From: Smithellaceae bacterium
GTDB taxonomy: Bacteria; Desulfobacterota; Syntrophia; Syntrophales; Smithellaceae
DNA: 64,000 nucleotides
Reading direction: 5' to 3'
NCBI GenBank assembly: GCA_030690945.1
Contig: JAUYFM010000007.1
Location: 59,134 to 123,133 of the forward strand
This document shows positions 8,783 through 58,795 of the stretch, one piece after another. The notes beneath the pieces are model-generated. The model was given only the letters and a program-made list of their open reading frames with translations. It was not told the origin of the DNA and made no database searches. The position numbers were made by a program, and so were the translations under genes. Numbering within the stretch: position 1 is the stretch's first letter; each line of letters opens with the position of its first letter.

Positions 8783-11446
8783 GTGGAAGAAAACAGCTAT
8801 CATGTTGATAATTCAGGAGCACTTATGATTTTACCCGGGAATGATATTTGCAGCAATCGTTTACAGAACAAGAAACAGCCCTTCTTTAATCCCGCTGTTG
8901 CGGGACGAGCGTCAATTCTCCGCAGCTTGCTGCGATATCATGATGTTCATTTCATACCTCGACAGCTTGCTGCGAGGTGGTTGATTATCATCGTGATGTT
9001 GGGTGCATTCCTTAATGCAGACAGTGCCCCCGCTCAGTACCAGCCACAAATCACCGGCATCGAAGTCAATCAGGTCCTGGGGGTGCAAAAAGATAATCAC
9101 AAGTATTTTGTGGCCGGCAAAAATACGGTGGTGCGGGTGTTTCTCAGTCCGGGTGTAACCGTTGATCCGGCAGCCACCTGGTTGAATGTGTCGCGTGGTG
9201 GAAATCAGGTTTTTAAAATATATCCAAAAAAAACTGCGGGTAATGTAACCGCAGTTGATTTTCTGTGCAAGAATCTAACGTCCTGCGAGAAATGGGCGGC
9301 GGGTTCCTATAGATTTCAGCCTTACATCAACGGGACGGCCGGAAGCGTTTCCGATCCCTATGTGTTTTCCACCGGCGCCAAAGTACGTGTCCTGGCCGTG
9401 GCCGTAAAGGCCAACTACGGTGGCGGCGTCATCAAATCGATTTCTGATACGAAATGGAAGACAATGGGAAGTTTCATGCAAAACGTTTATCCACTTGCGG
9501 AGGATAACCTGGTCTGGACCGTCCGTGAGGCCGTTCTGGACGCCTCGGCGGTTTCCTATAATCTGGCAAAAGTGGATAAAGATGGTTATTGGCCCGGCTG
9601 TCATAAACTATCAAATACGCTGGCCAACCTCATTCCCTCCAAATGTAAAACAAGCCCCCAGAGCGAGGGGTGTTATGACCTTGTGTTAGGATTCATCAAA
9701 GATTCGATTACGATGGAGAATAGCCAGGGACTGGTCGGTTACGCCTACCCCGGATCCAAATCCGTTGTGGCCGTGGCAGGTGACGACGACGCTCCCGGGA
9801 CGGTTGCCCATGAATTAGCCCATCAGTATGGCATCGGCGATACTTATAACGATGCAACATTGTCTTCCATCAGTTGCAGCGTCAATCCTGCTCCAAACGG
9901 ATTCGAGGGGCGGGATTTGGACAAGGGTCTTCCGGAAGGCGTTGTCATCAGTTGTAACGCCGGTCGTCTACCCTCCACTCTCAAGGGGATAAAGTATGAT
10001 ATTAACGGAGCGCAGGTGGCTAAATCCGATCATCCCTACGAGGTATATGGCCGCGGACTTCTCGAGGAAATGGCCGACTTTATGAGCGCCGGCGGCGCCT
10101 GGCAAAAACAATTGTGGATTACGAAGGACAGCTATGACTGGCTCTTCCGGAAACTGGTTTTGCAGGAACCCGCGCTGCAAAAGAAATCCATGGTCAGGGC
10201 AGCGGCGGCATCCGCTCAGCGGTTTGTCAGTTTCTCCGGCACTCTTTCCAAAACCGGTATTGTCGAATTAAAACCATGGAAAAGCTATACAGATACTGTC
10301 ATCCTCGACGATTCAATCGGTTCCCTCATGGTGCAGGCTGTCAACAGCACCGGGGACGTTCTGGCCTCGACGTCTTTTACCGTCCAGTTTTATATGGTTC
10401 ATCCCCCTCGGACTTTAACGACGGCGCCTTTTGGGGGAGTTGTCAATTTCCCGGCCGGTACGGTCAAGTTCCAGATCGTTAAAGATGGCGCGGTGCTCGC
10501 CTCCGTTCCAGTCAGTAATCATGCACCAACCGTTACCGGCGTCACACCCCAAACATCGACCATACTCGCTGGTTCCTATACCATTACCTGGACGGGAAAC
10601 GATCCGGACGGCGATTCGCTTTTGTACACGGTAGAATACAATCCCGATGTGACCAATGCATCCTCCACCTGGATGATACTGGCCAATGAATTGGAAACGT
10701 CTTCCTGGATGGAAGATTTCAGCCGGCTTCCGGGTGGCAACCATGCCAAAATTCGGGTAACCGCTTACGATAGCGTGCTTTACGCAATAGCCGAAAGCGC
10801 CGAGTTTGTCGTGCCGCTCAAGAAACCGGAAGTAACTATCGATGAATTGCCCTGGGGAACAGTTTATAATTTGGGTGACGACATTCTTCTTATGGCCGAA
10901 GCTTATGATCCGCAGGATGGAGCGCTGCCGGACGACAAGATTAGATGGACATCGGACATTTCCGGTGAACTGGGGTATGGTTCCGAACTGATTGTTGAAG
11001 ATCTGCAAGCGGGCCGCCATACGATAACCGTAACCGCCACAAACAGCGCCGGATTATCTTCCAGCGCTACGCTTTCCGTGCAGGTGGGTTCTGGCTCTGG
11101 CACCGGGAGCGGACATTGCTTCATTGCCACGGCGGCCTTCGGTTCTTACCTGCACCCGTATGTCGGCCTGTTGCGTGACTTCCGGGATGAGTTTCTCCTG
11201 ACCAACCGGGTCGGACAAGCCTTTGTGCGCTGGTATTACAGAGTTTCCCCGCCGCTGGCCGATTTGATTGCGCAAAAAGCCTATGCCCGGGCGGCGGTGC
11301 GAGTTGTGCTACTGCCCACCGTTGGTTTCAGTGCCCTTGCCCTGAATATCGGTTTGTTCGGGAGTGTGTTTTTACTCTTGGCCTTCCTGTTTCTGGCCGG
11401 TATGGGCGTGAGAAAACTGGTTCGGTTCGGCAGTCAAAGAGATTAA
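8783..11446 (+). CDS. large exported HEXXH zinc-metalloprotease-like protein with Ig-like repeats and a CFIATAA-type C-terminal membrane anchor
   Basis: VAHELAHQYGIGDTY (HEXXH). Repeated beta-sandwich-like modules (TITWTGNDPDGDSLLYTVEY; YDPQDGALPDDKIRWTSD...GRHTITVTATNSAGLSS). GSGSGTGSG linker, then CFIATAAFGSYLHPYV...FRDEFL and a terminal TM. The start is uncertain: codons ~35-68 are a translated family-A repeat, and possible real starts are at 8981-8996. Confidence 0.6.
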   Translation: MEENSYHVDNSGALMILPGNDICSNRLQNKKQPFFNPAVAGRASILRSLLRYHDVHFIPRQLAARWLIIIVMLGAFLNADSAPAQYQPQITGIEVNQVLGVQKDNHKYFVAGKNTVVRVFLSPGVTVDPAATWLNVSRGGNQVFKIYPKKTAGNVTAVDFLCKNLTSCEKWAAGSYRFQPYINGTAGSVSDPYVFSTGAKVRVLAVAVKANYGGGVIKSISDTKWKTMGSFMQNVYPLAEDNLVWTVREAVLDASAVSYNLAKVDKDGYWPGCHKLSNTLANLIPSKCKTSPQSEGCYDLVLGFIKDSITMENSQGLVGYAYPGSKSVVAVAGDDDAPGTVAHELAHQYGIGDTYNDATLSSISCSVNPAPNGFEGRDLDKGLPEGVVISCNAGRLPSTLKGIKYDINGAQVAKSDHPYEVYGRGLLEEMADFMSAGGAWQKQLWITKDSYDWLFRKLVLQEPALQKKSMVRAAAASAQRFVSFSGTLSKTGIVELKPWKSYTDTVILDDSIGSLMVQAVNSTGDVLASTSFTVQFYMVHPPRTLTTAPFGGVVNFPAGTVKFQIVKDGAVLASVPVSNHAPTVTGVTPQTSTILAGSYTITWTGNDPDGDSLLYTVEYNPDVTNASSTWMILANELETSSWMEDFSRLPGGNHAKIRVTAYDSVLYAIAESAEFVVPLKKPEVTIDELPWGTVYNLGDDILLMAEAYDPQDGALPDDKIRWTSDISGELGYGSELIVEDLQAGRHTITVTATNSAGLSSSATLSVQVGSGSGTGSGHCFIATAAFGSYLHPYVGLLRDFRDEFLLTNRVGQAFVRWYYRVSPPLADLIAQKAYARAAVRVVLLPTVGFSALALNIGLFGSVFLLLAFLFLAGMGVRKLVRFGSQRD
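8885..8987 (+). repeat. family-A intergenic repeat, long form (103 bp)
   Basis: tttaatCCCGCtgttGCGGGacgagcgtcaattct + two copies of CAGCTTGCTGCGA 37 bp apart + ggtggttgatta. Near-identical to 36451-36553 (reverse-complemented). A short form is at 22885-22950. Confidence 0.8.
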
Positions 11447-12541: not shown

Positions 12542-14011
12542 ATGAATATGAAAAAAAATTCTGTTGTATGGTCGCTATTCCTGATTCTTGTCCTGACGTT
12601 GTTTGTCGGATGCGCAGGCAGTTCCAGTTACAATTCAACCGCTCCGCTAAGTGCCGAGAATGTCAATCTGATCTTTGTGGTAAGCCCGGATTTAGCTTAT
12701 CAGACACCAGGTGATGTCAATCCAGACACGGCTAACCTTACCAATCAGGGTTTACAGCGCTCGCTTCTCCTGGCCACATACCTGAAAACACAGGTTCTGG
12801 GAAGAAAGAACGTAAACGGCATTTACGTGCTTGCACCGATGACGCATTTGCAAACTGCAAACAATTACCCTGATATGGCAGCAATCTGGTATATTCAACA
12901 ATTTGCCCTTCTCAACCAGATCACTCTACCCGTTGATAAAAATGGGACCAGATATACCGCCAACAGCTACCTGATAAACGCAGCGTATGCTCCAGGGTCC
13001 GTGCCCAGCGGAGTTGTTTTGCCGACTACATACTGCCCTGATTGCCAGGGGCTGGATTTCAACAACACTAACGGCAACAACGATACGTTAGTATCCGGTA
13101 TCACCAATAAAAAAATCCCGGGTTATTATGTATTTTCGGCGCCTTGGGAGACAATCAGCGCCTTGTTGGCCAATATCAGCAGCCTACAGGGTTATAACCT
13201 GACTCTTCCGGCGACCTATATGGGTACAAATTATGTCTATGCGATCTCCATCGCTCCGTCGGGAGACGCTCGCCTGGTTACCTACAACAGCAACCTGAAG
13301 CCGCCTGCAACTTATCCTGTACTGCCATCGCCTGTGACACGCGCTTCATGCACATACGCGCAGCAGCCCTATTTCAGCACCACACGGACCGGAGGGGTTC
13401 ATGGCGTCGTAATTCCGGCGAACATCAACAAAAACCAGATAATTTACATTGTACGGCATGCAGAGGCGCATCCGGGGAACGTGTTTGAAGACGGCAACTA
13501 TGTGGGTGCAGGACAATGGCGCGCGCTGGAACTTCCCAATGCTCTGCGCGGCAAAATAAGTCCCAACATGGTTTATTCTATCGACCCCGCACAGTGGTTC
13601 AATGTTTCATCCGTCAGCCCCCCATTCAATGTTTCATACGTCAGGCCCTCATTAACGGTACTGCCCTATGCCATCGCCAATAATTTGCCCTATTATCTGG
13701 TTTCGAGCTTCTATATCGTGGATAAGAACGTTGCACAACTCGCCAGTAACTTTTTCTTTACCGGAGGTAATTTATCTAATAAAAACATACTACTGGCGTG
13801 GGAGTCCACACGCATTAAACCGCTGATAAATGCGCTCCTGAAAAGCTATGGCGGCAGCAGCCTCCCGCTCCTCGATCCCAATTGGCCGATCGACGACTAC
13901 GACACCATCTGGACCGTGACGCTTGACGCCTCAGGTAACCTGACGGTGGACAACGCGTTGTGCGAAGGCATCGATTCTGCGGCGCTGCCGGCCACGGCCC
14001 CTCAATTCTGA
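12542..14011 (+). CDS. lipoprotein with a histidine-phosphatase-like C-terminal domain
   Basis: Lipobox LFVGC. The C-terminal half has IVRHAEAHPG (RHG/RHAE-type motif of the histidine phosphatase superfamily). The N-terminal half shows a similar LTNQG..RS..LA.YLK pattern but lacks the RH dyad. Assessed by eye only. Confidence 0.5.
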   Translation: MNMKKNSVVWSLFLILVLTLFVGCAGSSSYNSTAPLSAENVNLIFVVSPDLAYQTPGDVNPDTANLTNQGLQRSLLLATYLKTQVLGRKNVNGIYVLAPMTHLQTANNYPDMAAIWYIQQFALLNQITLPVDKNGTRYTANSYLINAAYAPGSVPSGVVLPTTYCPDCQGLDFNNTNGNNDTLVSGITNKKIPGYYVFSAPWETISALLANISSLQGYNLTLPATYMGTNYVYAISIAPSGDARLVTYNSNLKPPATYPVLPSPVTRASCTYAQQPYFSTTRTGGVHGVVIPANINKNQIIYIVRHAEAHPGNVFEDGNYVGAGQWRALELPNALRGKISPNMVYSIDPAQWFNVSSVSPPFNVSYVRPSLTVLPYAIANNLPYYLVSSFYIVDKNVAQLASNFFFTGGNLSNKNILLAWESTRIKPLINALLKSYGGSSLPLLDPNWPIDDYDTIWTVTLDASGNLTVDNALCEGIDSAALPATAPQF

Positions 14012-23076: not shown

Positions 23077-24495
23077 ATGAAAAAGAATGATTTTCCCATG
23101 AATGCCTACGCCGGGATGGCTTTAATTGCCGATCCGATTCACTCCTACGCTTTTTTTACTGTGCCGCATGATAACGGGCCCGCGGAAAAGACGGAAAAGG
23201 ACATTCTTGATTCTCCCTGGATGCAGAGGCTTAGGCGCATTTATCAACTCCAGAGCGCCCGCTGGGTATATCCTGCGGCGGAACATACCCGTTTTCAGCA
23301 CTCGCTGGGAACGATGCATGTCGCGGGAGAATTTGCCCGTCACCTGTATCCCAGCCTCAAGGATGTCTGCAAGGACACGCCGTCTTTTAATTATGTGGAA
23401 GAATTGCTTCGTCTTGCGGGATTGCTCCATGACGTGGGACACGGCCCGTTCGGCCATTTTTTTGATGAACATTATCTCTCTGCCTGGGGGTTGACCCATG
23501 AAGATATAGGCCGGCAGATCATTATCAAAAAATTGGGCGGGGTCATTTCGCGAATTTCGCGTGGCCCGTCGGGCGCTTTTGCCCGAGGAGAAATATTAGA
23601 CCCGCAGCAGGTCGCCTATCTCATCAAAATGCCCGATCTCCGCCGTGAAGAAAAACAGCCGCGCTGGCTTCACTGGCTCAGGCAGTTGTTCTCCGGCATT
23701 TACACGGTTGATAATCTCGACTACGTCCAGCGCGACGCCTATATGACGGGTTTTTCTCTGGACATGGTTGATATGCCGCGCCTGCGCTACTACACATTTT
23801 TTACAAAAGACGGCCTGGCCCTTCATCAGTCCGGCATCTCGGCGCTCAGGCGTTTTCTCAACGCCCGCTTGAATCTATACAGTAATGTGTATTTTCACCG
23901 CACCACGCGCGCGCTGGATTTGCACTTGCAGGAAATTTTCTCGGACACGCTAAAACTCATTTACCCGGTAAGTCCCATGAAGAATCTCGACGCCTATCTC
24001 GGTTGCGATGAGTGGTCGCTGTTCAGCCAGGTACAGAGCTGGCTATTTACGAAAGACAAGCAAAAGCATAAGCTGGCGCTGGAGTGGCAGAAGATACATG
24101 CCCGCAAGCTGAAATGGAAAATGTCTTTTGCAGCCGAAATATCCATCGATTCGATTCAACGCGGAACGGTATTTCCGGACGCACAAAATTATGAGGCAAA
24201 GATCAAAACCTTTCTCCCCGCAAAACTCAAAAAGCTTCCGTTTCGCGTGGATGTAGCAACGCAGGACCCGCGTCCTTTGAATCCGATGGCTGTGCCGTCC
24301 AAACTCATCAATATCTTCAATCCGGCGACGGGGCATATTTCTTCCGAACCGCTGGCTGAGATTTACCGCTTCATTCCTGCGCGTGTACATCATTTCCGAG
24401 TTTTTGCGCTTAACCATGACCACGATAAAGAGCTGTCGAAGGCGGCGGAGGCGGCGCTGGGCAATATCGAAAAATCCATTCTGACGAACGTGTAA
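23077..24495 (+). CDS. HD-domain phosphohydrolase, SAMHD1/EF1143-like (putative dNTP triphosphohydrolase)
   Basis: RFQHSLGTMHV, LLHDVGHGPFGHFFD and VDNLDYVQRDAYMTG, the pattern of the COG1078-type HD family. The stop TAA lies 1 nt before the nrdD-like ATG. Confidence 0.8.
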   Translation: MKKNDFPMNAYAGMALIADPIHSYAFFTVPHDNGPAEKTEKDILDSPWMQRLRRIYQLQSARWVYPAAEHTRFQHSLGTMHVAGEFARHLYPSLKDVCKDTPSFNYVEELLRLAGLLHDVGHGPFGHFFDEHYLSAWGLTHEDIGRQIIIKKLGGVISRISRGPSGAFARGEILDPQQVAYLIKMPDLRREEKQPRWLHWLRQLFSGIYTVDNLDYVQRDAYMTGFSLDMVDMPRLRYYTFFTKDGLALHQSGISALRRFLNARLNLYSNVYFHRTTRALDLHLQEIFSDTLKLIYPVSPMKNLDAYLGCDEWSLFSQVQSWLFTKDKQKHKLALEWQKIHARKLKWKMSFAAEISIDSIQRGTVFPDAQNYEAKIKTFLPAKLKKLPFRVDVATQDPRPLNPMAVPSKLINIFNPATGHISSEPLAEIYRFIPARVHHFRVFALNHDHDKELSKAAEAALGNIEKSILTNV

Positions 24496-24496
24496 T

Positions 24497-26563
24497 ATGA
24501 TTGATTTCTCCGAAACGACAGATTTAACATTATTCATCCGTACGTCCGGCGAAGAGATCGCGCCGTGGAACCGCCAGCGTATTGTGGACGCTCTGCTGCG
24601 CGAAGCGGGCATTGATTATCTGCTGGCGGCGGAAATTTCCAAGGACGTCGAAAAACAGATTATCGCCTCCGGCATCGGCCTTTTGACGACATCGCTGGTG
24701 CGCGAGCTGGTGAACGCCAAGCTCATTGAGCGGGGATTGGAAAAGGAGCGCCGTCTGCACGGCCGCCTGGGATTTCCCCTCTACGATGTCCGCCAGCTTA
24801 TTTTGCACCAGAACAAGGAAAACGCCAACACGCCTCATTCTCCCGAGGGCACCAATCTGCTTTTTGCCGAAGGCATTAAAAAAGAATTTTCGCTCTACGA
24901 CGTTTTTTCCATCGACGTTGGAGAAGCGCACACGGCGGGCGACCTGCACATTCACGGATTGGGGTATATTGACCGCCCCTACAGTTGCTGCCAGTCGCTG
25001 GAATATCTGAAACTTTTCGGATTGAAACTGCCGCACGCGATCAATTCCGCCAAACCCGCCAGGCACGCGGAAGTGTTGCTGGCACACATGGTGCGCTTCA
25101 GCGCCATTCTCCAGGGGCACTTTACCGGCACGATCAGCTGGGACGCGCTCAACATTTCTTTCGCGCCGTATTTGTGCGGCAAGAGCGACAAGGAAATCCG
25201 CCAGTTTGCGCAGATGCTCGTCTATGAATTTTCCCAGCTTTCCGCCGCGCGCGGCGGCCAGGCGCTCTACACGGACATTCATCTTTATTATGATCTGCCG
25301 GCGACTTGGGCGGATCTTCCCGCCATCGGGCCTGCAGGAATTCCCACCGGCAAAACCTATCGTGATTATACGCCGGAGGCGCAGCGCCTTGCCCGGGCGA
25401 TTTTCGAAGTCTTTCAAAAAGGCGACGCGACGGGCAGGCCCTTTATTCTGCCCCGGCCGCTTCTCCATATTACCGAAGCGTTCTTCCGCGAGCCCGCCGC
25501 TGATGATCTGCTGCGCCAGGCTTGCGATGTGGCGGGGTCTCAGGGCAACACCTGTTTTGTATTCGACCGCGGCCCCGACGCGCTGACGGCCGGTTGTTTC
25601 AACAGCGTTTTTCTAGAGGAGGCGTCCGTCAGGGGGGAATTGACCAAGCCCTGGCTTTTGCGCCAGGCCGCCGTGCAAAGCGTGACGTTGAATCTGCCGC
25701 GCCTGGGCTATAAGGCCGAAGGCGATGAGGAAAAGCTCTTTGGCTATTTAAAAGAATTAATGAAGACGGCCGCCCAGGCGCACATCCAGAAAAAAGACTT
25801 TCTGGAAAAACTTTTATCTTATGCCGAGCAGGGGCCGCTGGCGGTGCTGGCGATGAACGCCGATGGCTGTCCTTTTTTGAGGATGAACCGCGCCTACTAC
25901 ATCATCGGTCTTGTCGGTCTCAACGAACTGGCTATGATTTTTCAGGGCGGGCCGTTGCATGCATCGCCGGAAGCCATGGATTTCGGCTTGCGGATCGTCG
26001 CCTTTATGCGGCGTGAGGCCGAGCAATTAAGTTCGGAGCTGGGGATGACGTTTGTCCTGGAGCAGTCGCCGGCGGAAACCACGGCGTATCGCTTTGCGAG
26101 GCTTGATCTGAAATATTACTCGCCTGCCGCCGGACGTTTTGTTCAAGGCGATATCGCCGAAGGGTCCATCTACTATACGAACTCCACGCATCTCCATGCC
26201 GCGGCGGATATCGCGCCTCTGCAAAGAGTCATTGAAGAAGGGAAATTCCATCCATACCTGGCGGGAGAAGTCATTACGCATCTGCAATTGGGCGATGCCA
26301 ATCCCGGCCCGGATGCGCTTGTTCGTTTTTTGCGTAACATCTTTGACCAGTCCGTCAACCGTCAGATTGATTTTACACCGGAATTCACCTCGTGTCTTTC
26401 CTGCGGGAAAACCGCGCCGGGCCTGACTGAAAGATGCGGCTACTGCGGCTCGGCCGATGTTGAAGGCATCGCCCGGCTCACCAAATATTACAGCAAAATT
26501 TCCGGCTGGAACAAAGGAAAGATTGCGGAACTTCGCAGCAGAAAAATCAGCGGCGATTTTTAG
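24497..26563 (+). CDS. nrdD: class III (anaerobic) ribonucleotide reductase-like protein with a non-canonical glycyl-radical site
   Basis: N-terminal ATP-cone. AHTAGDLHIHGLGY...CC motif. TLNLPRLGY. C-terminal Zn ribbon CLSCG...CGYCG. The radical motif reads ARLTKYYSKISGWNKGK, where the family consensus is R-[IV]-[TS/C]-G-Y. Confidence 0.85.
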   Translation: MIDFSETTDLTLFIRTSGEEIAPWNRQRIVDALLREAGIDYLLAAEISKDVEKQIIASGIGLLTTSLVRELVNAKLIERGLEKERRLHGRLGFPLYDVRQLILHQNKENANTPHSPEGTNLLFAEGIKKEFSLYDVFSIDVGEAHTAGDLHIHGLGYIDRPYSCCQSLEYLKLFGLKLPHAINSAKPARHAEVLLAHMVRFSAILQGHFTGTISWDALNISFAPYLCGKSDKEIRQFAQMLVYEFSQLSAARGGQALYTDIHLYYDLPATWADLPAIGPAGIPTGKTYRDYTPEAQRLARAIFEVFQKGDATGRPFILPRPLLHITEAFFREPAADDLLRQACDVAGSQGNTCFVFDRGPDALTAGCFNSVFLEEASVRGELTKPWLLRQAAVQSVTLNLPRLGYKAEGDEEKLFGYLKELMKTAAQAHIQKKDFLEKLLSYAEQGPLAVLAMNADGCPFLRMNRAYYIIGLVGLNELAMIFQGGPLHASPEAMDFGLRIVAFMRREAEQLSSELGMTFVLEQSPAETTAYRFARLDLKYYSPAAGRFVQGDIAEGSIYYTNSTHLHAAADIAPLQRVIEEGKFHPYLAGEVITHLQLGDANPGPDALVRFLRNIFDQSVNRQIDFTPEFTSCLSCGKTAPGLTERCGYCGSADVEGIARLTKYYSKISGWNKGKIAELRSRKISGDF

Positions 26564-26688
26564 ATGATCAGCCATGCAATTCTTTGCCTTTGTTATGTTT
26601 ACACACGCCAGTCTTTTTTCTTGACAAACGAAAGATAGTTTTCAATCATTTGAATCATACGACAATTTGTTGTGGAAAGGAGGGTCAA

Positions 26689-27192
26689 ATGTTTCGTTAT
26701 ATATTTATGATCGTTTGCCTCATGCTGCTTGGCTCTTTATGGTTTGGCTCAACCGCCGTCGCGCAAAAAACCATGAATGTTCAGGTTAAAGAAAGCCAAT
26801 TGCGGGCCACGCCGTCGCATTTGGGTAAAGTCGTGGCCAGGACAACTTACGGCAGTCCGGTGACGGTATTGGAAGAGCGGGGTGCCTGGAAAAGAGTGTC
26901 ACTGGGCAGCGGGAAAAATCAGGGATGGATGCACAATACAGCCCTGACTAGTAAAAGAATAGCCCTGAAAGCAGGGCAGAGCAATGTGGGGACTTCCGTC
27001 ACCCGCGATGAAATCGCGCTCGCGGGCAAGGGCTTCAGCGAAGAGGTGGAGGCCCAATATCGCAAGAGCAACAAAAAGCTTGACTACACATGGATCAATA
27101 AGATGGAAGCCATGAAGGTGTCTCAGGATCAAATGGAAGATTTTATATCCGGTGGTCGCCTGACACCTGGCGGGGAAGGGGGCAGGCCATGA
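26689..27192 (+). CDS. exported SH3b-domain protein
   Basis: ATG at 26689 after GGAAAGGAGGG. Signal peptide MFRYIFMIVCLMLLGSLWFGSTAVAQ. SH3b-like segment VKESQLRATPSHLGKVV...GAWKRVSL...GWMHNTAL. Confidence 0.6.
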   Translation: MFRYIFMIVCLMLLGSLWFGSTAVAQKTMNVQVKESQLRATPSHLGKVVARTTYGSPVTVLEERGAWKRVSLGSGKNQGWMHNTALTSKRIALKAGQSNVGTSVTRDEIALAGKGFSEEVEAQYRKSNKKLDYTWINKMEAMKVSQDQMEDFISGGRLTPGGEGGRP

Positions 27193-28106
27193 ATAAGCAC
27201 TTTTGGCAAACAGGGTTTATCCTGCTGACTTTAATTACTCTGACGGGCTGCGCGGCTGTGGAAACGGCGACGACTGTGGCTACGACGGTTGGCGAGGCCA
27301 CCGGCACGATCAGCAAGTCTCAAGGTCAGTCCATACGCAAAAGCACTGCGGCCGTGTCGAAGAGCCTGGAAGATTTTACGCCGGAACAGGAATACTATAT
27401 CGGACGAACCGTCGGTGCGGTGGTTCTGGGAAAGTATTCGGCTTCAGCAGATGCAAAAGTCAATGCCTATCTCAATGTGCTCGGTCAGACGCTGGCCCAG
27501 GCGTCGGATATGCCTGAACTGTTTGGCGGGTATCATTTTCTCGTTTTGGATTCCGACGATATCAACGCCTTTGCCACATCGGGCGGCCACATCTTTATTA
27601 CCCGCGGGCTGATACGCTGCTGCCGGACGGAAGACGCGCTGGCCGCTGTTTTAGCGCATGAGATCGGTCATGTTCAGTTAAGGCACGGCATGAAGGCCAT
27701 CGAAAAAGCGCGGATGACGGAGGCGCTTTCGATTCTGGCACAGGAAGGGGCCAAGTCGTTCGGTTCCCAGGAAGTCGCACAATTAACTCAGGCTTTCGGG
27801 GGTGTGATTTCCGATATCACCAACACGATGATCAACAACGGCTATTCCCGTTCTTATGAATATCAGGCCGATGCGGCGGCGGTGTCCATCCTTCAGCGGA
27901 TGAGTTACAATTCCGGCGCGCTGACCGATATGCTGGGCGTCATGGCCAGGCAAATAAAACCGGGTGGATCTGATTTTGCCAAGACGCATCCTTCGCCGCA
28001 GAACCGGATTGCCGAGTTGAAGGAAAGCGGAAAGTCGCTTGCCGTCGCTGAGACGCCGGCCATCCGCAAAGAGAGATTTACCAAAGCAGTAGGCCATCTA
28101 CTGTAG
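27189..28106 (+). CDS. M48-family zinc metallopeptidase lipoprotein
   Basis: Lipobox LTGC. HEXXH LAHEIGHVQLRHG. ATGA overlap with the preceding gene. Confidence 0.85.
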   Translation: MNKHFWQTGFILLTLITLTGCAAVETATTVATTVGEATGTISKSQGQSIRKSTAAVSKSLEDFTPEQEYYIGRTVGAVVLGKYSASADAKVNAYLNVLGQTLAQASDMPELFGGYHFLVLDSDDINAFATSGGHIFITRGLIRCCRTEDALAAVLAHEIGHVQLRHGMKAIEKARMTEALSILAQEGAKSFGSQEVAQLTQAFGGVISDITNTMINNGYSRSYEYQADAAAVSILQRMSYNSGALTDMLGVMARQIKPGGSDFAKTHPSPQNRIAELKESGKSLAVAETPAIRKERFTKAVGHLL

Positions 28107-28641: not shown

Positions 28642-30795
28642 ATGGATCTTAAAAAAATATTCCGTTTCGGCAAATCAAAGCTAGTGCAGGGCCTGCTGGC
28701 GGGAATGATCGGCGTTGTGTTTGCCCTGGTCTTTTTCTTGCCGGGCTGGCTTTCTCGCTGGGAGGCGAAGACCTGGGACTGGCGAGTCAACATTCTGGCA
28801 ACACCGTCGCCTGCCACACCAAAAATCCGTTTGATCCTGCTCGATCAAAACAGTCTGGACTGGGCCAAAGACGAAAACGGCCTGTCCTGGCCCTGGCCGC
28901 GCGAAGTTTACTCGACAGTCATCCAATTCTGCAAGCGCACGGGCGCAAAGTCTCTGGCCTTTGATGTGCTCTTTACGGAACCCTCCAAATACGGCGTGGC
29001 GGACGATCAGGCTTTTGCATCCGAAATGAAGGGGTTTAAATCTTTTGTGGGAGCTGTCTTTCTCAGCAAGACGGCGGGCAGTGAAAAACGCTGGCCTGCT
29101 TTTGCTCCCGCGCCGGCTTTGAATGTTCAGGGACTTGACCTGTGGCTTACCGACACCGGACATGACGCCTTTTTCCGAGCTTCGTTTCCTGTGGCGGAAA
29201 TATCCGCCGCCGCAGGTCTTCTGGCCAATGTTCACCTGAATCCGGATGCAGACAGCGTCTATCGACGGGCGGCGCTTTTTGAGGTATTTGACGGCAAAAT
29301 TTTACCGTCGCTTGCTCTGGCGAGTTATTGGACCACAAAACCGGATATGTCTTTGAAAATTTATCCGGGAAGCTTCATGTTGGGCGATAGGGCAATTCCT
29401 GTCGATGCCGCAGGCAGGGCCATTCTTAATTTCCGCGGCCCGTCGGGAACCCACAAAGCGTATAGTGCGGCATCGGTCATTCAAAGTGAACTGCGTCTCC
29501 AAAATGGAGAGACATCTGTTATCCAGAATCTGGAAGAGTTCAAGGACGCCTATGTCTTTTTCGGGTTTTCCGCTCCCGGCCTGTATGATCTTCGTCCCAC
29601 GCCTGTTTCCGGTGTCTATCCCGGCGTGGAAATTTCCGCCACGATGCTCGACAACCTGCTGGCCAATGATTTTATCCGGCCTGTCCCCCTGGTTCTTGTT
29701 GTTGTCATCACCCTGATCATTGTTCTTCTTGCCGGTATGGCAACGTCTTGGGTCTCCGGTATTTTTAAAAGCGTCCTGGTCTATACGTTCTTTATCTCGG
29801 CGCCGGTTGTCCTTTGTCTGATCGCTTACCGGTTGGGCTTCTGGCTGCCGCTGGTGGTTCAGGAGGCGGGTGTTGCCGTGACGCTTTTCAGCGCGGGGCT
29901 TATTTATTACACAACCGAGGGACGGCAGAAAACTTACATCAAAAGCGCTTTCAAGCAATACCTGAGCCCCGCTGTGATTGAACAGCTTATTCAAAATCCC
30001 GAACGGCTGAAACTGGGCGGTGAGCGGCGGATGCTCTCTATTTTTTTCTCCGACCTGGAAGGCTTTACGAGCATATCGGAAGGTCTTGATCCGGAAGCGC
30101 TCACCAATTTGCTGAATGTTTACCTAACGGCCATGACGGACATCATCCATGAAGAAGGCGGCACCGTGGACAAGTATGAAGGGGATGCGATCATCGCCTT
30201 CTGGAATGCGCCTATTTCCCAGCCGGATCACGCTGTCCGCTGTGTTCGTGCCGTACTAAACTGTCAGGCGAAGCTTGCCCTGATGCGTCCTGTTCTTCGG
30301 GAAAGTCTGGGAAGGGATTTGAAAATGCGCATCGGCGTCAATACCGGCTACGCCGTGGTCGGCAACATGGGTTCCCATTCCCGGTTTGATTATACGATGA
30401 TCGGCGATGCGGTGAATCTGGCGGCGCGACTGGAAGGCATCAACAAACAGTTCGGCACCTATACCCTGCTTTCACAAGCCACGATGGAACAGATGGCCGG
30501 CGCTTTTCCGGTGCGGGAAATTTCACGGGTAGCGGTGGTGGGCCGTAAAGAGCCGGTGGTTGTTTACGAACCGATGTTGACGGAAAGTATCAATACGCAG
30601 AAACAAAAGATCATGGCGCAATTTGCTGAAGCGCTGGCTTTGTTCTACCGGGGCGACTTTGCTCAAGCCCGGGAATTATTTTCCGTCATGACAGGCGAAG
30701 ATGCCGTGGCGAAAGCCTATGTCGCCAAATGCGACGAACTGATCGCCGATCCGCCGAAAAATTGGCAAGGGGTGTGGGTGATTACGACGAAATAG
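28642..30795 (+). CDS. CHASE2-domain class III adenylate/guanylate cyclase
   Basis: N-terminal TM, a periplasmic CHASE2-like region and three TMs, then the cyclase domain (FFSDLEGFTSISE, KYEGDAIIAFWNAP, IGDAVNLAARLEG). Confidence 0.9.
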   Translation: MDLKKIFRFGKSKLVQGLLAGMIGVVFALVFFLPGWLSRWEAKTWDWRVNILATPSPATPKIRLILLDQNSLDWAKDENGLSWPWPREVYSTVIQFCKRTGAKSLAFDVLFTEPSKYGVADDQAFASEMKGFKSFVGAVFLSKTAGSEKRWPAFAPAPALNVQGLDLWLTDTGHDAFFRASFPVAEISAAAGLLANVHLNPDADSVYRRAALFEVFDGKILPSLALASYWTTKPDMSLKIYPGSFMLGDRAIPVDAAGRAILNFRGPSGTHKAYSAASVIQSELRLQNGETSVIQNLEEFKDAYVFFGFSAPGLYDLRPTPVSGVYPGVEISATMLDNLLANDFIRPVPLVLVVVITLIIVLLAGMATSWVSGIFKSVLVYTFFISAPVVLCLIAYRLGFWLPLVVQEAGVAVTLFSAGLIYYTTEGRQKTYIKSAFKQYLSPAVIEQLIQNPERLKLGGERRMLSIFFSDLEGFTSISEGLDPEALTNLLNVYLTAMTDIIHEEGGTVDKYEGDAIIAFWNAPISQPDHAVRCVRAVLNCQAKLALMRPVLRESLGRDLKMRIGVNTGYAVVGNMGSHSRFDYTMIGDAVNLAARLEGINKQFGTYTLLSQATMEQMAGAFPVREISRVAVVGRKEPVVVYEPMLTESINTQKQKIMAQFAEALALFYRGDFAQARELFSVMTGEDAVAKAYVAKCDELIADPPKNWQGVWVITTK

Positions 30796-39460: not shown

Positions 39461-41224
39461 CTACGCCGGTCTTTCCAGCCCTTTCACAATCTGCGAGCGG
39501 ATGATGCGCGGGAGAATCAGTTGATGCTGCGGGCAGATGGCGCGGGGATTCTGATAGGCGCAGTTGGCGAAGCCTACCAAATAATTTCTTAATTCGTGGT
39601 AGCGGACGATCTCATCGACAAAGCCTTTCTTCGCGCAAAACATCGGCCCCGACGTATCGTCGTAGTGCTGGACCATCTCGTTCATCTTGTCGATGATGGG
39701 CCCGAGCGGCTTTCCGGCATCCTTCTCTTTAACGAGCCTGCGGGCGTAACTGGCCGCCGCTGCGGTTTCGCCATGCATGACGTTGATTTCCGTGGTCGCA
39801 GTGCCCAGTGAAAAGGCGTTGTTATTGTTGGCCGTGGGACCGCCCAAAACATAATGCGCCGCCGCCGTGCCTTTGCGCAGCACCACCAGCATCATCGGCA
39901 GCTTGGAATTTTCAATGGAGTAAATCAGCGACTGACCCAAGCCGAGGAGTTCCGCCTTTTCCGCCGTATCGCCCACGTCAATGCCTGATGTATCCTGAAA
40001 CCAGATCATCGGCACTTTGTCGCGCGAACACAACGTGACGAACTCACTCATCTTGATCAGGCCCTGGCGGTAAAGCTTTCCGCCCACACCCATATACTCT
40101 TTGGTGTATTCAGGATAGTTGGGCAAGATGCCCTGACGGTTGCCGATCACGCCCATCAGATAACCATCCACTTTTACCAAACCGCAATACATTTCCGGGC
40201 CAAATCCGGGACGGAATTCCAGATGCTCAGAACGATCCACCAGACGCGCCAGTACCTGCTCAAAATCATAGACACGTTTTTTATTCACGGGGACAATCGA
40301 GGCGATTTCAGAAGGAGGATATGCGGGCTCGGCAGGCTGGGCCACGCGGAAAAAGCGCGGGTTGTAGGCGGGCAGATCATCCATGTAATCTTTAATGGCA
40401 TCGAGCACCTGTTTCTCTTCGTCAAAGACGGCGCGGAAAAAACCCGTGACGTCATAATGAACTTTCACACTGCCGGGCGGAACGGATTTGAAATGTCTGG
40501 TGGCGTTAATGATTTCTTCAGCGCCCGCTTCGTCAAATGACCCTTTGGGTGACATGCCGCTCACAATGCCGCTGCCGCCCACGGCCATGTTGGCTTTTTT
40601 ATGCGCCAGCAATATGGTCGGGCTGATCGACTGATAGCCGCCGCCTGCGGGATTAGTGCCGTAAATACCGGCAATGACCGGGATGCCCATCTGCTCGAGT
40701 TCCGCGTGACGAAAAAAGCAGGTTCCCTGACCGCGGCGGTTGGCATACATTTTTTCCTGCTCAGGCAACTTCACACCGGAGCAGTTCACCAGCCACACCA
40801 AGGGAATATTGAGAATCTTGGCAATGTCCGTGACACGCAGATTATTTTCCGGCTGTCCGGCAATCCACGCGCCGGCCATCCATTTATTATTGAACCCGAT
40901 AAGCGCACACCACTTGCCATGGATGCGGGCCAGGCCATCGACTACGCCGGTGCTGCCGGACTCTTCATTTTCCGGATCAAAAATGCTGTGCAGCGGGCAG
41001 AAGGTTCCGGGATCAGCCAGATAGTCGATGCGTTCCCAGACACTCATCTCGCCCCGTTCATGCATTGTTGGCAGTGGCACGCCGACGTTTTTAATGCGTT
41101 CGACTTCCGCGTCGATCTGCTTCATGATGTCTTCGAGTTTCATGCAGTTTTCCTGCATGCTTTCGATCTGTTTGGCCGAGAGCGGTTTGCCCAGCGGATC
41201 CATTTTTTCAAAGTATTGTCTCAT
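39461..41224 (-). CDS. acyl-CoA carboxyltransferase, glutaconyl-CoA decarboxylase alpha (GcdA)-like
   Basis: Two-lobed carboxyl-transferase domain of about 590 aa. ATG at 41224 with GGGGAG upstream. The GTG at 41254 in the track lies inside a MITE terminal repeat. Confidence 0.8.
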   Translation of the reverse strand: MRQYFEKMDPLGKPLSAKQIESMQENCMKLEDIMKQIDAEVERIKNVGVPLPTMHERGEMSVWERIDYLADPGTFCPLHSIFDPENEESGSTGVVDGLARIHGKWCALIGFNNKWMAGAWIAGQPENNLRVTDIAKILNIPLVWLVNCSGVKLPEQEKMYANRRGQGTCFFRHAELEQMGIPVIAGIYGTNPAGGGYQSISPTILLAHKKANMAVGGSGIVSGMSPKGSFDEAGAEEIINATRHFKSVPPGSVKVHYDVTGFFRAVFDEEKQVLDAIKDYMDDLPAYNPRFFRVAQPAEPAYPPSEIASIVPVNKKRVYDFEQVLARLVDRSEHLEFRPGFGPEMYCGLVKVDGYLMGVIGNRQGILPNYPEYTKEYMGVGGKLYRQGLIKMSEFVTLCSRDKVPMIWFQDTSGIDVGDTAEKAELLGLGQSLIYSIENSKLPMMLVVLRKGTAAAHYVLGGPTANNNNAFSLGTATTEINVMHGETAAAASYARRLVKEKDAGKPLGPIIDKMNEMVQHYDDTSGPMFCAKKGFVDEIVRYHELRNYLVGFANCAYQNPRAICPQHQLILPRIIRSQIVKGLERPA

Positions 41225-41242
41225 ACATTCTCCCCTAGAGAG

Positions 41243-41390
41243 AGACTGTGTCACAAATCATTTTCATGTCATAACCTTTCAGGTCACGCGTTTCGAAGCA
41301 AAGCGAGAAATCTTGTTTTTAATAAATTCAAGGTATTAAGATTCCTCACATACGTTCGGAATGACAATTGTTATAATTGTGACACAGTCT
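41243..41390 (-). mobile_element. family-B MITE-like element, copy 3 (148 bp)
   Basis: Reverse complement of copy 2 with a 19-bp extra segment aacctttcaggtcacgcgt shared with family C. TIRs agactgtgtcacaaat / ataattgtgacacagtct. Lies 19 nt upstream of the GcdA-like start codon. Confidence 0.75.
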
Positions 41391-41391
41391 C

Positions 41392-41441
41392 AGAACAAGG
41401 GGTCTTGCCACCCTTCAGTGGTGGATGCATCCCCTTGTTCT
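41392..41441. repeat. palindromic element downstream of the acyl-CoA dehydrogenase gene
   Basis: 11-bp perfect inverted repeat AGAACAAGGGG / CCCCTTGTTCT enclosing gtcttgccaccc-ttcagt-ggtgg. Confidence 0.6.
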
Positions 41442-41462
41442 ATTAGTGATCGGATAGTCCGA

Positions 41463-42620
41463 TTATGCCCGGTTCGGGGCAAATCCCATCGCCGCGTTGG
41501 CGACGATCATCGTGTGCATGTTGGAGGTGCCTTCCAGCGTCTCGAACTGCTTGGAGTCTCGCAGGAAGCGGCCGCAGGGATATTCATCGGAATAGCCGAA
41601 GGAGCCGTAAAGCTTCATGCATTCATTGGCGTCATGCACGACGACTTTCGCGCCGTAGAGTTTGGACATCGATGTTTCCATGACATTGGGCAGGCCCTTG
41701 TCTTTGAGCCACGCCGCCTTATAAACCAGCGCCGCCAGCGTCTCATGCCCGCACTTCATGTCTGCGACCTGCTGCTGGATGAGCTGATATTTGCCGATTT
41801 GCTTTCCAAACTGACAGCGTTCCGTCGCGTATTTTGCCGAAGCGTCGAGGATTGCGCTGGAAAGACCCAGGGCGCCGGCCGAACAGCCCAGACGCGTGGA
41901 GTTGAGTTGCGTCATGCACATCTGGAATCCTTTGTTGAGTTTGCCCAGCAAGAGGCTCTTGGGCACTTTCACGTCTTCAAACGTCAGCTCCGCGGTATCG
42001 GACGCCCACAGGCCGACTTTGTCATGAATCTTTTTGCGCTCAATGCCCGGCAGGCTGTAATCCATGATGAAGCAACTCACGCCGTTGGCGCCGGCGTCCT
42101 TGTCCGTCTTGACATAAAGCAGACCGTGATTACAGACGGTGCCGTTGGTGATCCACATTTTGTTGCCGTTGATCAGATAGTAATCGCCCTTATCGACGGC
42201 GTTGCATTTCATCGAGGCGACGTCCGAGCCGATGTCCGTCTCAGTCATGGCGAAGCTGCCGATATATTCACCGCTGACAAACTTGGGAATGTAGTGTTGC
42301 TTTTGTTCTTCCGTGCCGAATTTCTGAATGGTGAGCGCGGGTCCCCAGCATTGCATGTTGAAGGCCATGCGCCAGGACGTGTGCACCTTAGCAATCTGTT
42401 CGATGGCCAAAGCGCCTTCCAGAAAGCCCATGCCGTTTCCGCCGTATTTTTCATCGATGGAGAAACCAAAAAATCCAAGGTCGGCCATCTTCTGAAAAAT
42501 TTCCTTGCGCCAGAAATGATTTTTTTCGTCTTCCTCTACATGCGGCGCGATTTCTTTTTCGGCAAAACTTCTTGCCGTATCCTGTATCATTGTTTGTTCT
42601 TCCGTTAATGCAAAATCCAT
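41463..42620 (-). CDS. acyl-CoA dehydrogenase (glutaryl-/butyryl-CoA dehydrogenase-like)
   Basis: MDFALTEEQ N-terminus. The ACAD middle and C-terminal domains with the catalytic-base region FETLEGTSNMH. 385 aa. Confidence 0.9.
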   Translation of the reverse strand: MDFALTEEQTMIQDTARSFAEKEIAPHVEEDEKNHFWRKEIFQKMADLGFFGFSIDEKYGGNGMGFLEGALAIEQIAKVHTSWRMAFNMQCWGPALTIQKFGTEEQKQHYIPKFVSGEYIGSFAMTETDIGSDVASMKCNAVDKGDYYLINGNKMWITNGTVCNHGLLYVKTDKDAGANGVSCFIMDYSLPGIERKKIHDKVGLWASDTAELTFEDVKVPKSLLLGKLNKGFQMCMTQLNSTRLGCSAGALGLSSAILDASAKYATERCQFGKQIGKYQLIQQQVADMKCGHETLAALVYKAAWLKDKGLPNVMETSMSKLYGAKVVVHDANECMKLYGSFGYSDEYPCGRFLRDSKQFETLEGTSNMHTMIVANAAMGFAPNRA

Positions 42621-42656
42621 GATTCTTTATCCTCCGAGGCTATTGATTAAATAAAC

Positions 42657-42684
42657 GTAGGGAACAGTCGCGACTGTTCCCTAC
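42657..42684. repeat. REP palindrome (variant GTAGGGAACAGTCGCGACTGTTCCCTAC)
   Basis: Perfect 28-bp palindrome between the thiolase and dehydrogenase genes. Confidence 0.85.
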
Positions 42685-42692
42685 AAATAACT

Positions 42693-43958
42693 TCATTTTC
42701 TTTCGATGACCATACATATCCCCTGGCCGCCGCCGCCGCAGATCGTCTCCAGGCCGAAACGCTTGTCGGCCCGCACCATTTCGTTAATCAGCGTGGTAAG
42801 CCGCATCGCACCGGTTGCGCCGATGGGATGCCCGAGCGAAATACCCGAACCGTTCACATTGACTTTGGCGTCCATCTGCTCGTCGGAAAGGCCGGAAAGT
42901 CGAGAGTCTGCCAGACACTGGACGGCAAACGCCTCCTGCACTTCGATCAGATCGATCTGATCAATGGTCGCGTTAATCTTTTTCAGTGCTTTTTCCACCG
43001 ATGCCGGAACTGCGGGGTAGGTGAGCGTCGGGTCGGTAGCCGCCACCGCGCAGGAGCGGAAATAGGCCAGCGGCTTGACGCCCAGCTCCTTGGCTTTCTT
43101 TTCAGACGCCATCACAACCACCGCCGCGCCGTCATTTTCCGACGACGAATTGCCCGCCGTGCAGACGCCGTCTTTATAAACAGCTTTAAGTTTGGCCAGG
43201 CGTTCCAACGTGGTTTCGCGGCGCGGTCCTTCATCGGTTTTCAAATAAACGGTTTCACCATTCTTATCTTTGCCGGTCGCAATCGGGACAATTTCATCGA
43301 CAAACTTGCCCGCGTCCTGCGCCGCAATCGCCCGCTGATGAGAGCGCAGGGCCCAGCGGTCGGCTTCTTCCCGGGTGATCTTCTCTTTTTGGGCGGCGGT
43401 TTCCGCCCAGGTCATCATCGAACTTAGCTCGCCGTATCGCGCAATGGGCTGAGACATGACTCGTCCGCGCTGAAGTCTGTCATAAAAAGGAATTCCCCAC
43501 ATGGCCAGCGCGCCGTGTCCGCGGGGCATGAAGCCGTATTTTTCATGGCTTTTGCCGCCCAGTCCCCACTTGATGTCGCCGGGGATATAAAGTTCGCCCT
43601 GGCTCATCGATTCCATACCGCCGGCGATGATCAGGTCGGCGTTGCCGGTTTGGATTTTCATGGCCCCGTAAAAGATGGTATCCAGCCCCGAACAGCAGCG
43701 CCGATCCAACATGATTCCCGGAACAGTGTCCGGCCACCCTGCGTCGAGCACGGCCATGCGTGCGCCGTTGGCGCACTCGCCGTTCTGGTAGGCTGATCCC
43801 ATGACGACATCATCAATCATCGCGGGATCAATTTTGGCCTTTTTGACCACTTCCTGCAAGACCAGACTGGCCAGGCGGTAAACCGGAACATCTCTGAGCG
43901 CTCCTCCGTAAGCGCCGATCGGCGTTCTCGCACAACTGATAAAAACGACATTTTCCAT
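42693..43958 (-). CDS. thiolase (acetyl-CoA C-acyltransferase family)
   Basis: Active-site Cys context DRRCCSGLD. C-terminal NVNGSGISLGHPIGATG and CGGGGQG signatures. Confidence 0.9.
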   Translation of the reverse strand: MENVVFISCARTPIGAYGGALRDVPVYRLASLVLQEVVKKAKIDPAMIDDVVMGSAYQNGECANGARMAVLDAGWPDTVPGIMLDRRCCSGLDTIFYGAMKIQTGNADLIIAGGMESMSQGELYIPGDIKWGLGGKSHEKYGFMPRGHGALAMWGIPFYDRLQRGRVMSQPIARYGELSSMMTWAETAAQKEKITREEADRWALRSHQRAIAAQDAGKFVDEIVPIATGKDKNGETVYLKTDEGPRRETTLERLAKLKAVYKDGVCTAGNSSSENDGAAVVVMASEKKAKELGVKPLAYFRSCAVAATDPTLTYPAVPASVEKALKKINATIDQIDLIEVQEAFAVQCLADSRLSGLSDEQMDAKVNVNGSGISLGHPIGATGAMRLTTLINEMVRADKRFGLETICGGGGQGICMVIERK

Positions 43959-43971
43959 AAAGCAGCACCTC

Positions 43972-45633: not shown

Positions 45634-45672
45634 TAACGCATAACCTCCTTTAATCTTTCATCACCTCTTTGC

Positions 45673-57908: not shown

Positions 57909-57921
57909 AAAAGACCGTTCC

Positions 57922-58752: not shown

Positions 58753-58795
58753 AAATTTATACTTTCTTCATCGAACGAGAAAACTCAGGGGCGGC

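Follow-up and report, generated by a model that had tools for sequence, protein, structure and literature searches.

The gene at 24497-26563 (+) of the DNA stretch analyzed here encodes an NrdD-like protein of 688 amino acids (aa), which has the fold of a class III ribonucleotide reductase (RNR) and lacks the residues of its radical machinery. The stretch, called the window throughout, comprises 64,000 nt of a Smithellaceae bacterium (assembly GCA_030690945.1, contig JAUYFM010000007.1, positions 59,134-123,133 of the forward strand). We consider it very likely that the protein is not a radical RNR and likely that it functions together with the HD-domain protein encoded directly upstream. The more detailed reading, that a catalytically dead NrdD was kept as nucleotide-binding partner of a deoxynucleoside triphosphate (dNTP) triphosphohydrolase, is derived from sequence comparison and has about an even chance of being right, while a specific mechanism as sensor or regulator is put forward tentatively. 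The features on which the argument is based are the following.

23077-24495 (+): HD-domain phosphohydrolase, 472 aa, putatively of the SAMHD1/EF1143 dNTP triphosphohydrolase type (Pfam, PDB matches, synteny)
24493-24499 (+): junction TAA-T-ATG, stop of the HD gene and start of the NrdD-like gene 1 nt apart (direct read)
24497-26563 (+): NrdD-like protein, 688 aa, class III RNR fold without radical machinery (PF13597, TIGR02487, AlphaFold2/Foldseek)
24536-24739 (+): ATP-cone-like N-terminal domain, residues 14-81, degenerate (PF03477, 18.8 bits, below the cutoff of 25.8)
24812-24829 (+): NxN flap (NKENAN), retained (aligned to Prevotella copri RENANM)
24947-24958 (+): HIHG, the HxHD triphosphate-binding motif with Asp replaced by Gly (aligned to P. 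copri HIHD and Thermotoga maritima YLHD)
24983-24991 (+): Ser163-Cys164-Cys165, with Ser163 at the position of the RNR-universal cysteine (T. maritima C125, T4 C79; alignments)
25577-25645 (+): remnant of the SCCR/finger loop, residues 361-383, DALTAGCFNSVFLEEASVRGEL, degenerate (clade alignments)
25685-25702 (+): TLNLPR, barrel motif of NrdD, retained (N399-L400-P401-R402 invariant in 82 members)
26063-26077 (+): QSPAE, substrate-phosphate loop and helix N-terminus of NrdD, retained (aligned to P. copri ATPAE, 577-581, and T. maritima QVPAE)
26393-26446 (+): Zn ribbon CxxC-x10-CxxC with C633, C636, C647 and C650, retained (all four Cys invariant in 82 members)
26468-26521 (+): IARLTKYYSKISGWNKGK, the loop that carries the radical Gly in canonical NrdDs, here with Lys663 (AAA, 26483-26485) at that position (PDB-sequence and family alignments)

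Sequence family and fold

The assignment to NrdD is unambiguous at the level of sequence family and of the ten-stranded barrel fold. The Pfam family NRDD (PF13597) matches residues 108-683 with an E-value of 4e-118, and TIGR02487, the NCBIfam equivalog model of NrdD, scores 346 bits against a cutoff of 326. An AlphaFold2 model based on 49 sequences (predicted local distance difference test score 76.8, predicted template modelling score 0.77) was compared with the PDB by Foldseek; the top 36 matches are all class III RNRs, with template modelling scores of 0.53-0.71. The motifs GDLHIHG, CC, TLNLPR, CxxC...CxxC and WNKGK, on which the original prediction had relied, are all present. It is by way of TIGR02487 in NCBI PGAP, and likewise at JGI, that members of this family are named 'anaerobic ribonucleoside-triphosphate reductase' in the databases. 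The N-terminal cone-like domain reads IRTSGE where a canonical cone has KRDG. A canonical NrdD of the same order has IRKRDGRLVKF at this place; the nearest Gly-bearing clade has VRTS, like the NrdD-like protein.

The radical-glycine site

Lys663 occupies the position of the radical glycine. Its codon AAA follows gcc cgg ctc acc, which encodes A-R-L-T, and in phmmer alignments with PDB sequences the query segment ARLTKYY places it opposite the radical Gly of P. copri NrdD (RITGY within LQRITGY; 8P23), opposite that of T. maritima NrdD (RIVGY within MRIVGY; 4COI) and opposite position 580 of the T4 G580A mutant (RRTCAY; 1H78). All three alignments agree, and the register that had been set by eye in the original prediction is right. 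The radical fingerprint R-[IV]-x-G-[YFW] is absent from the protein.

This substitution is shared by close relatives. We retrieved the 120 closest clusters from a collection of 5.8 billion proteins; they are 70-98% identical and originate mostly from metagenome-assembled genomes of Smithella, Smithellaceae and Syntrophaceae. Each of the 120 reads (A/T)(R/Q/K)LT[K/R]Y at this site, and all 121 sequences of the resulting K-clade alignment carry either Lys (90%) or Arg (10%). Since Lys or Arg occurs in every one of the closest homologues, a sequencing or assembly error, already held to be unlikely in the original prediction, is ruled out. Misalignment was rejected as well, on the basis of three profile alignments that are independent of each other and of the conservation seen in more than 200 sequences.

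To cover the wider family, one genome per GTDB species was scanned, which gave 80 loci, all from Syntrophales or unclassified 'Deltaproteobacteria'. Three sequence types were found: Smithella-like sequences have K or R, Syntrophus-like ones have Q (few R, one L), and eight genomes still have Gly. Among 82 members of the HD-linked family, site 663 is K in 41, Q in 28, G in 7, R in 5 and L in one, while the codons at the site are AAA (39), AAG (1), CAA (9), CAG (19), CGN/AGG (5) and GGN (9). Conservation of Lys among orthologues thus holds, with Arg as the alternative, for the closest homologues, but not across the order. The adjacent residues Y664, N672 and K675 are invariant or near-invariant. 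The original prediction had stressed that two substitutions separate Lys from Gly. Arg codons are one step away from Gly and also one step away from Lys and from Gln, and Arg is present in both sub-clades; the change is therefore most simply explained via an Arg intermediate.

Losses beyond the glycine

The other catalytic residues were examined by comparing the 121 K-type sequences with 120 sequences of the nearest Gly-bearing NrdD clade, which is the sister clade and 53% identical to the query. The active-site cysteine on the first barrel strand (T4 C79, T. maritima C125, P. copri C171) is replaced by Ser163. phmmer pairs T. maritima MPYCF with RPYSC of the query, and the sister clade reads DRPYCSGQSL with Cys in 100% of its sequences, whereas the K clade (DRPYS) has Ser in 98%. 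Within the HD-linked family this position is S in 74, N in 6 and A in 2 of the 82 members. Alignments with T4 and P. copri, which include a one-residue indel, put their Cys opposite C164; positions 164 and 165 are not conserved in the family.

A second loss affects the SCCR loop. Both of its cysteines are essential for the activity of the T. maritima and N. bacilliformis enzymes (PMC4493059). The sister clade is invariant over this region (KISECCRLS.KL..DL.DA), whereas in the K clade the top residues reach frequencies of only 0.2-0.6 and indels occur. Among the 82 members, no other stretch of 15 aa in the protein varies as much as residues 369-383, which reach 3.09 bits compared with an average of 1.13, and in five genomes (L037, L038, L046, L062, L070) the segment is deleted. 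The position of the second, radical Cys is occupied by G (24), F (23), C (17) or L (8). In the protein of the window itself, which reads AGCFN, only the first Cys remains; Phe stands in place of the second and Asn in place of the Arg, so that neither MGCR nor SCCR is present. In addition, the Asp of the HxHD motif is lost, with Gly at position 154 in 90% of the K clade versus Asp in 100% of the sister clade.

Two other positions turned out to be of no help. The original prediction had taken the missing Asn before TLNLPR (T4 Asn311) as a further sign of inactivation. This was over-read: the canonical, Gly-bearing sister clade is also devoid of it and reads RYSALQNVTLNLPR, and the Asn is a feature of formate-type NrdDs only. 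The specificity-site residues mapped from the T. maritima enzyme are likewise uninformative, because the sister clade already differs from it (Q161 of T. maritima corresponds to K there and to R in the protein of the window).

The eight Gly-bearing genomes of the family survey (L081-L088; Syntrophales, HD-linked) shed some light on the order of these events. They read TRISGYFTH or SRVGGYITH, with LNRGK instead of WNKGK. Besides the retained Gly, they have a Ser in place of the universal Cys and a degenerate SCCR loop, and their HD gene and nrdD lie further apart, with about 160-200 nt between them. They look like an intermediate stage of decay. Since they are already without the universal Cys and the SCCR motif, the cysteines seem to have been lost first and the glycine later.

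Retained fold and pocket motifs

Outside the radical relay, the family is strongly conserved. The flap residues N106, A110 and N111 are invariant or near-invariant in the 82 members, and the role of this NxN flap in NrdD has been described (PMC11226230). Q523, A526 and E527 of QSPAE are invariant, and the four-ligand Zn ribbon stands in its usual place ahead of the radical loop. The two histidines of the HxHD motif (H151/H153), Tyr162, YYTNS, Tyr664 and WNxGK are invariant or near-invariant as well; Tyr162 corresponds to T. maritima Tyr124, which is poised at the ribose. Invariant pocket, Zn and fold motifs, taken together with the NrdD-fold model, indicate strong purifying selection on a non-catalytic function.

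The upstream HD gene

The original prediction had missed the context that we regard as decisive, namely the tightly coupled HD gene upstream of the NrdD-like gene. Its product matches the Pfam families HD (E 2e-11) and HD_assoc_2, and the best PDB-sequence matches by phmmer are 2HEK (1e-26), 2Q14, the Enterococcus dNTPase EF1143 (2O6I/3IRH/4LRL; 4e-24) and SAMHD1 (1e-14). The closest solved relatives are dNTPases. The metal-binding motifs HTRFQHSLG, LLHDVGHGP and DNLDYVQRD, which make up the H...HD...D signature, are present and invariant in 65 full-length orthologues. Against the dGTPase equivalog models of NCBIfam the protein reaches 21-31 bits with cutoffs of 152-439, a range in which the substrate is not assignable by sequence.

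The coupling of the two genes is found throughout the order. A spacer of 1 nt, as in the window, occurs in 33 of 65 orthologous loci, and in about 52 of the 65 the genes overlap or are separated by at most 9 nt. Wherever a Syntrophales locus extends far enough upstream, the HD gene is found immediately ahead of the NrdD-like gene (tblastn, 52-97% identity), and the pair is present in all 80 Syntrophales species sampled, with types that follow taxonomy (K in Smithella, Q in Syntrophus). The remaining neighbors of the pair vary from genome to genome. When both proteins were scanned with PADLOC, the HD protein gave a weak dGTPase match of 30 bits (21 bits with the anti-phage dGTPase models of NCBIfam; family cutoffs 383-400) and the NrdD-like protein gave no match, which makes an assignment as defence system unlikely.

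Activase and canonical reductase

No cognate activase accompanies the pair. A Pfam scan of the window (44 of 47 open reading frames (ORFs) of at least 80 aa, including every ORF of at least 150 aa) revealed neither a gene for a radical S-adenosylmethionine (SAM) activase nor another RNR gene, and tblastn with NrdG against all 64 kb found nothing either, in agreement with the original prediction. Likewise, no nrdG is linked to the HD-paired family in the 80 loci, except in three where it belongs to a second, canonical nrdD. These are Q-type genomes (L051, L063, L069), in which this second nrdD is encoded on the opposite strand at a distance of 2.5-4 kb. Its product is 26% identical, carries a KRDG ATP cone, SMCCR and RVVGYL, and is followed by nrdG with CNFRCPYC. 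Orthologues of this canonical NrdD are common in Smithella genomes. For example, Smithella sp. PtaU1.Bin162 (GCA_002068015.1) encodes the canonical nrdD-nrdG on MVRV01000060.1 and the HD gene with the K-type NrdD on MVRV01000094.1. The presence of both in one assembly implies that the K-type protein is an extra paralogue and not the reductase of the organism.

The search for a second canonical nrdD and for nrdG elsewhere in the genome, which had been proposed with the original prediction, was thus successful in these genomes. Its suggestion of a non-radical pseudoenzyme or nucleotide sensor is strongly supported by the loss of the glycine, the universal Cys and the SCCR loop and by the missing linked activase, and also by the canonical nrdD-nrdG of the same genomes. 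Its other suggestion, a different radical site, is disfavored, as the protein has also lost the cysteines needed to pass any radical on to the substrate.

P0121 (53% identity) is the Gly-bearing NrdD closest to the query; at the one locus examined, a radical-SAM activase is encoded beside it and there is no HD gene. A search with P0121 for NrdDs of this clade on the same large contigs as K-type proteins found none, a result that is uninformative. In PtaU1.Bin162 (L089/L090:5001-10982), the canonical nrdD-nrdG genes are followed on the same strand by a gene for a GAF and HD_5 (HD-GYP-like) protein and by metK, which encodes SAM synthetase, the source of the activase cosubstrate.

Proposed function and alternative explanations

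The lost relay, the retained pocket and fold and the linkage to the HD gene suggest to us that the two proteins work as a unit on the dNTP pool. According to this proposal, the protein would be a dead class III paralogue in which the ten-stranded barrel and the Zn ribbon are preserved, as is most of the nucleotide pocket, namely the NxN flap, the two His of HxHD, the QxPAE loop and the Tyr that follows the former Gly. Its radical relay is wholly lost: the Gly, the universal Cys, the linked activase and, in the SCCR loop, both the second Cys and the Arg are missing. The gene would be co-transcribed, and probably translationally coupled, with that of a predicted HD dNTP triphosphohydrolase whose catalytic motifs are intact, while dNTPs would be made by the separate canonical NrdD-NrdG. 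The dead NrdD might bind nucleoside triphosphates (NTPs) or dNTPs in its retained pocket or pockets and act as sensing or regulatory subunit of the HD dNTPase, so that these slow-growing strict anaerobes might adjust dNTP degradation to the state of their nucleotide pool. In its full form, with a whole class III RNR subunit turned into a nucleotide-pool sensor that is complexed with a SAMHD1-like dNTPase and controls it allosterically, we regard this proposal as possible but somewhat doubtful.

Several observations weigh against it. The HxHD Asp is lost, so that the protein may bind a ligand other than a nucleoside triphosphate. Of the 82 members, 73 retain Cys367, and the loop around K/Q663 is still highly conserved, both of which could signal a new chemistry rather than pure sensing. 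Eight HD-linked members still have the Gly, so its loss is not required for the function of the family, and related dead NrdDs in other phyla have no HD neighbor. The confidence of the AlphaFold2 model is low at the flap (88-130), at the SCCR remnant and at the loop 660-671, and the model is silent on the direction of the Lys663 side chain. Finally, nucleotide binding and a complex of HD protein and NrdD are suggested by conservation and gene order, and the direction of regulation is conjectural as well.

The first alternative is closely related to these points. The protein might be a new, non-radical enzyme that performs a two-electron reaction on a nucleotide via the Lys, Arg or Gln at the loop tip, perhaps together with Cys367, and that feeds, or is fed by, the HD phosphohydrolase. 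The strong conservation of the former Gly loop and its flanks despite the loss of the Gly, the widespread Cys367 and the invariant pocket motifs would be in line with such an activity, and tight coupling to a nucleotide-hydrolyzing enzyme would suit a two-step pathway. However, residue 663 is chemically mixed (K, R, Q, L, G), the neighboring loop needed for an active site is hypervariable and sometimes deleted, and a radical-free reaction on the NrdD fold has no known precedent. We thus consider a new enzyme unlikely.

Two further explanations are less probable still, each with a small chance of being correct. One assumes that the target is the canonical RNR system, with the dead NrdD as a decoy or buffer for NrdG or as an inhibitory partner of the real NrdD. 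It would account for the invariant Zn ribbon, for which a contact with NrdG has been conjectured (PMC4493059), and for the three genomes in which the pair lies 2.5-4 kb from the canonical nrdD-nrdG. Yet an identity of about 26% to the co-resident canonical NrdD makes heterodimers unlikely, it is the HD gene and not nrdDG with which linkage is conserved, and there is no nrdDG within 10 kb in the window and in most loci. The other assumes depletion of dNTPs against phages, in which the dead NrdD would sense infection through a phage RNR or a nucleotide surge and turn on the HD dNTPase. The weak dGTPase matches of the HD protein and the variable flanking genes would fit, but these scores are far below the family cutoffs and no further defence genes are found nearby in the window. 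Moreover, the presence of the pair in all 80 species sampled, congruent with taxonomy, is the pattern of a vertically inherited housekeeping function and not of a patchy island.

A protein that is still a radical RNR, with a C-alpha radical on Lys663 or a radical elsewhere that is installed in trans by the NrdG of the genome, is very improbable. Aminoacyl radical enzymes demonstrate stable C-alpha radicals on residues other than Gly (PMC11528403), and NrdG is indeed encoded elsewhere in these genomes. However, site 663 varies among K, R, Q, L and G. Because aminoacyl radical enzymes keep their catalytic Cys and a dedicated adjacent activase, whereas here the universal and SCCR cysteines are lost and no activase is linked, a lysyl-radical RNR appears to be the least likely of the four alternatives (new enzyme, modulator of NrdD/NrdG, defence, lysyl radical). 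An artefact or decaying pseudogene, for which nothing speaks besides the loss of catalytic residues, is negligible and already refuted by conservation, given an intact full-length ORF in more than 80 species and more than 120 metagenomic clusters at 55-98% identity, many invariant columns and an AAA codon that is consistent in the K clade.

Related NrdD-like proteins beyond Syntrophales

A wider survey of the 150 nearest representatives at 50% identity revealed further NrdD lineages without the Gly, with R, E, I, T, N or D at the radical site. The universal Cys is absent in nine of ten Gly-less full-length representatives and kept in P0168. Ser or Asn stands at this position, with intact Zn cysteines, in P0138, P0140, P0141, P0143, P0147, P0151, P0155, P0173 and P0231. 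No HD gene was found beside P0138, P0140, P0143, P0151, P0175 and P0135, whose gene contexts differ. Gly-less NrdDs are thus a broader phenomenon than the window, and the pairing with an HD gene is the Syntrophales version of it.

Some of these proteins deserve a separate description. P0135 of Synergistaceae (L091:4532-7073) keeps the Gly (KIAGHY) and has Ser at the universal Cys; its gene overlaps an upstream nrdR (Zn_ribbon_NrdR and ATP-cone) by 8 nt, and no activase gene is nearby. P0175 belongs, together with some 40 similar representatives such as P0190, P0194 and P0202, to a large group of NrdD-like proteins with a length of about 750-770 aa. This group is without the entire Zn-ribbon/Gly domain and has an N-terminal extension of about 150 aa as well as an ATP cone. 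The gene of P0175 (L008:2922-5878) is directly followed by a gene of the PRK family (uridine-kinase-like). Many of the canonical NrdDs in the survey (P0123-P0134, P0161-P0164, P0183, P0187, P0199, P0203, P0209, P0227, P0251) are 1100-1700 aa long, with two to four separate matched stretches, the pattern expected of intein insertions.

Other genes of the window

Directly downstream of the pair, at 26584-28106 (+), an SH3_3-domain protein (202 aa) and an M48 peptidase (305 aa, lipoprotein-like N-terminus) are encoded with overlapping stop and start codons; they are not found beside the pair in two other genomes (L001 and L002). A fusion of a CHASE2 sensor with an adenylate/guanylate cyclase (717 aa, 28642-30795, +) follows 2 kb downstream of the pair; ahead of it, in a stretch of low coding density, lies an ORF of 122 aa on the minus strand. 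Further away, carboxyltransferase, thiolase, malic enzyme and oxaloacetate-decarboxylase-like genes (39461-47082) and two HGD-D family genes (2-hydroxyglutaryl-CoA dehydratase D-component/benzoyl-CoA-reductase-like) around a 190-aa ORF without Pfam match (58910-61969, -) represent typical syntroph carbon metabolism. Four long ORFs gave no Pfam match at E-values of 1e-3 to 1e-5: 8783-11446 (+; 887 aa), 12542-14011 (+; 489 aa), 41361-42608 (+; 415 aa) and 57898-58944 (+; 348 aa). The third overlaps an opposite-strand ORF of nearly equal length (41463-42620), which leaves the coding strand ambiguous.

Significance

A literature search for Gly-less NrdDs or NrdD pseudoenzymes, NrdD-like proteins and pairs of NrdD and dNTPase returned nothing relevant, and we did not find a separate RNR-derived sensor paired with an HD dNTPase described before. 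If our proposal is true, the protein would be the first pseudoenzyme derived from a class III RNR and would represent a previously unknown regulation of dNTP catabolism, while dead NrdDs of other phyla would be paired with other genes of nucleotide metabolism (nrdR, PRK-type kinase). The order-wide, near-overlapping coupling to the HD gene suggests a control point of the dNTP pool that has not been described so far, where a repurposed enzyme of synthesis stands beside an enzyme of degradation. There is also a practical consequence: because annotation pipelines name the dead copies reductase, functional RNRs are over-counted in RNR inventories and in the reconstructed metabolism of Syntrophales and of other lineages that carry such copies.

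Glycyl radical enzymes are defined by their radical glycine, and the present family illustrates a different outcome of its loss, in which the fold is kept without radical chemistry. A search among class III RNRs (IPR012833) in the 2024 study of aminoacyl radical enzymes had retrieved canonical Gly sequences only (PMC11528403). For metagenome-derived genomes, this statement fails in the light of the family described here.

Comparison with known systems

Among characterized reductases, the protein resembles the NrdDh subclass most (T. maritima and N. bacilliformis; SCCR, thioredoxin-dependent). Fold, length and domain order are the same, with a cone-like N-terminus, NxN flap, barrel, Zn ribbon and C-terminal loop, and the QxPAE loop, the Tyr following the Gly position and WNxGK are shared. 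Unlike NrdDh, it has Lys for Gly, Ser for the universal Cys, a degenerate SCCR loop and HxHG for HxHD; it has no cognate activase, is linked to a gene of the HD dNTPase type and occurs in genomes with a separate canonical NrdD-NrdG. The nearest Gly-bearing clade, 53% identical, in contrast possesses an ECCR motif and an adjacent activase gene.

A second comparison concerns the aminoacyl radical enzymes, in which Ala, Ser or Thr replaces the radical Gly of PFL-type glycyl radical enzymes (Fu et al., 2024; PMC11528403). As in those enzymes, a conserved residue other than Gly is found at the radical position, mainly in metagenome-assembled genomes and not as result of sequencing errors. However, the catalytic Cys and a neighboring activase are retained in aminoacyl radical enzymes, which do form radicals, whereas the NrdD-like family has lost the cysteines and the activase and carries K, R or Q. 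The protein of the window consequently shows none of the features that define aminoacyl radical enzymes, neither Ala, Ser or Thr at the site nor the Cys nor the activase next to it.

On the side of dNTP degradation, the HD protein belongs to the same sequence family as the dNTPases of the SAMHD1/EF1143 type and has intact metal-binding motifs. SAMHD1 and EF1143 are regulated by nucleotide binding, and their regulatory nucleotide sites lie inside the HD protein, while for the pair described here we propose a separate, RNR-derived sensing partner. A parallel in concept is NrdR, the ATP-cone repressor of RNR genes, which is also a module of the RNR world reused purely as a nucleotide sensor that controls dNTP supply. 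However, NrdR keeps only the small cone domain and binds DNA, whereas the NrdD-like protein comprises the whole catalytic subunit and has no DNA-binding domain.

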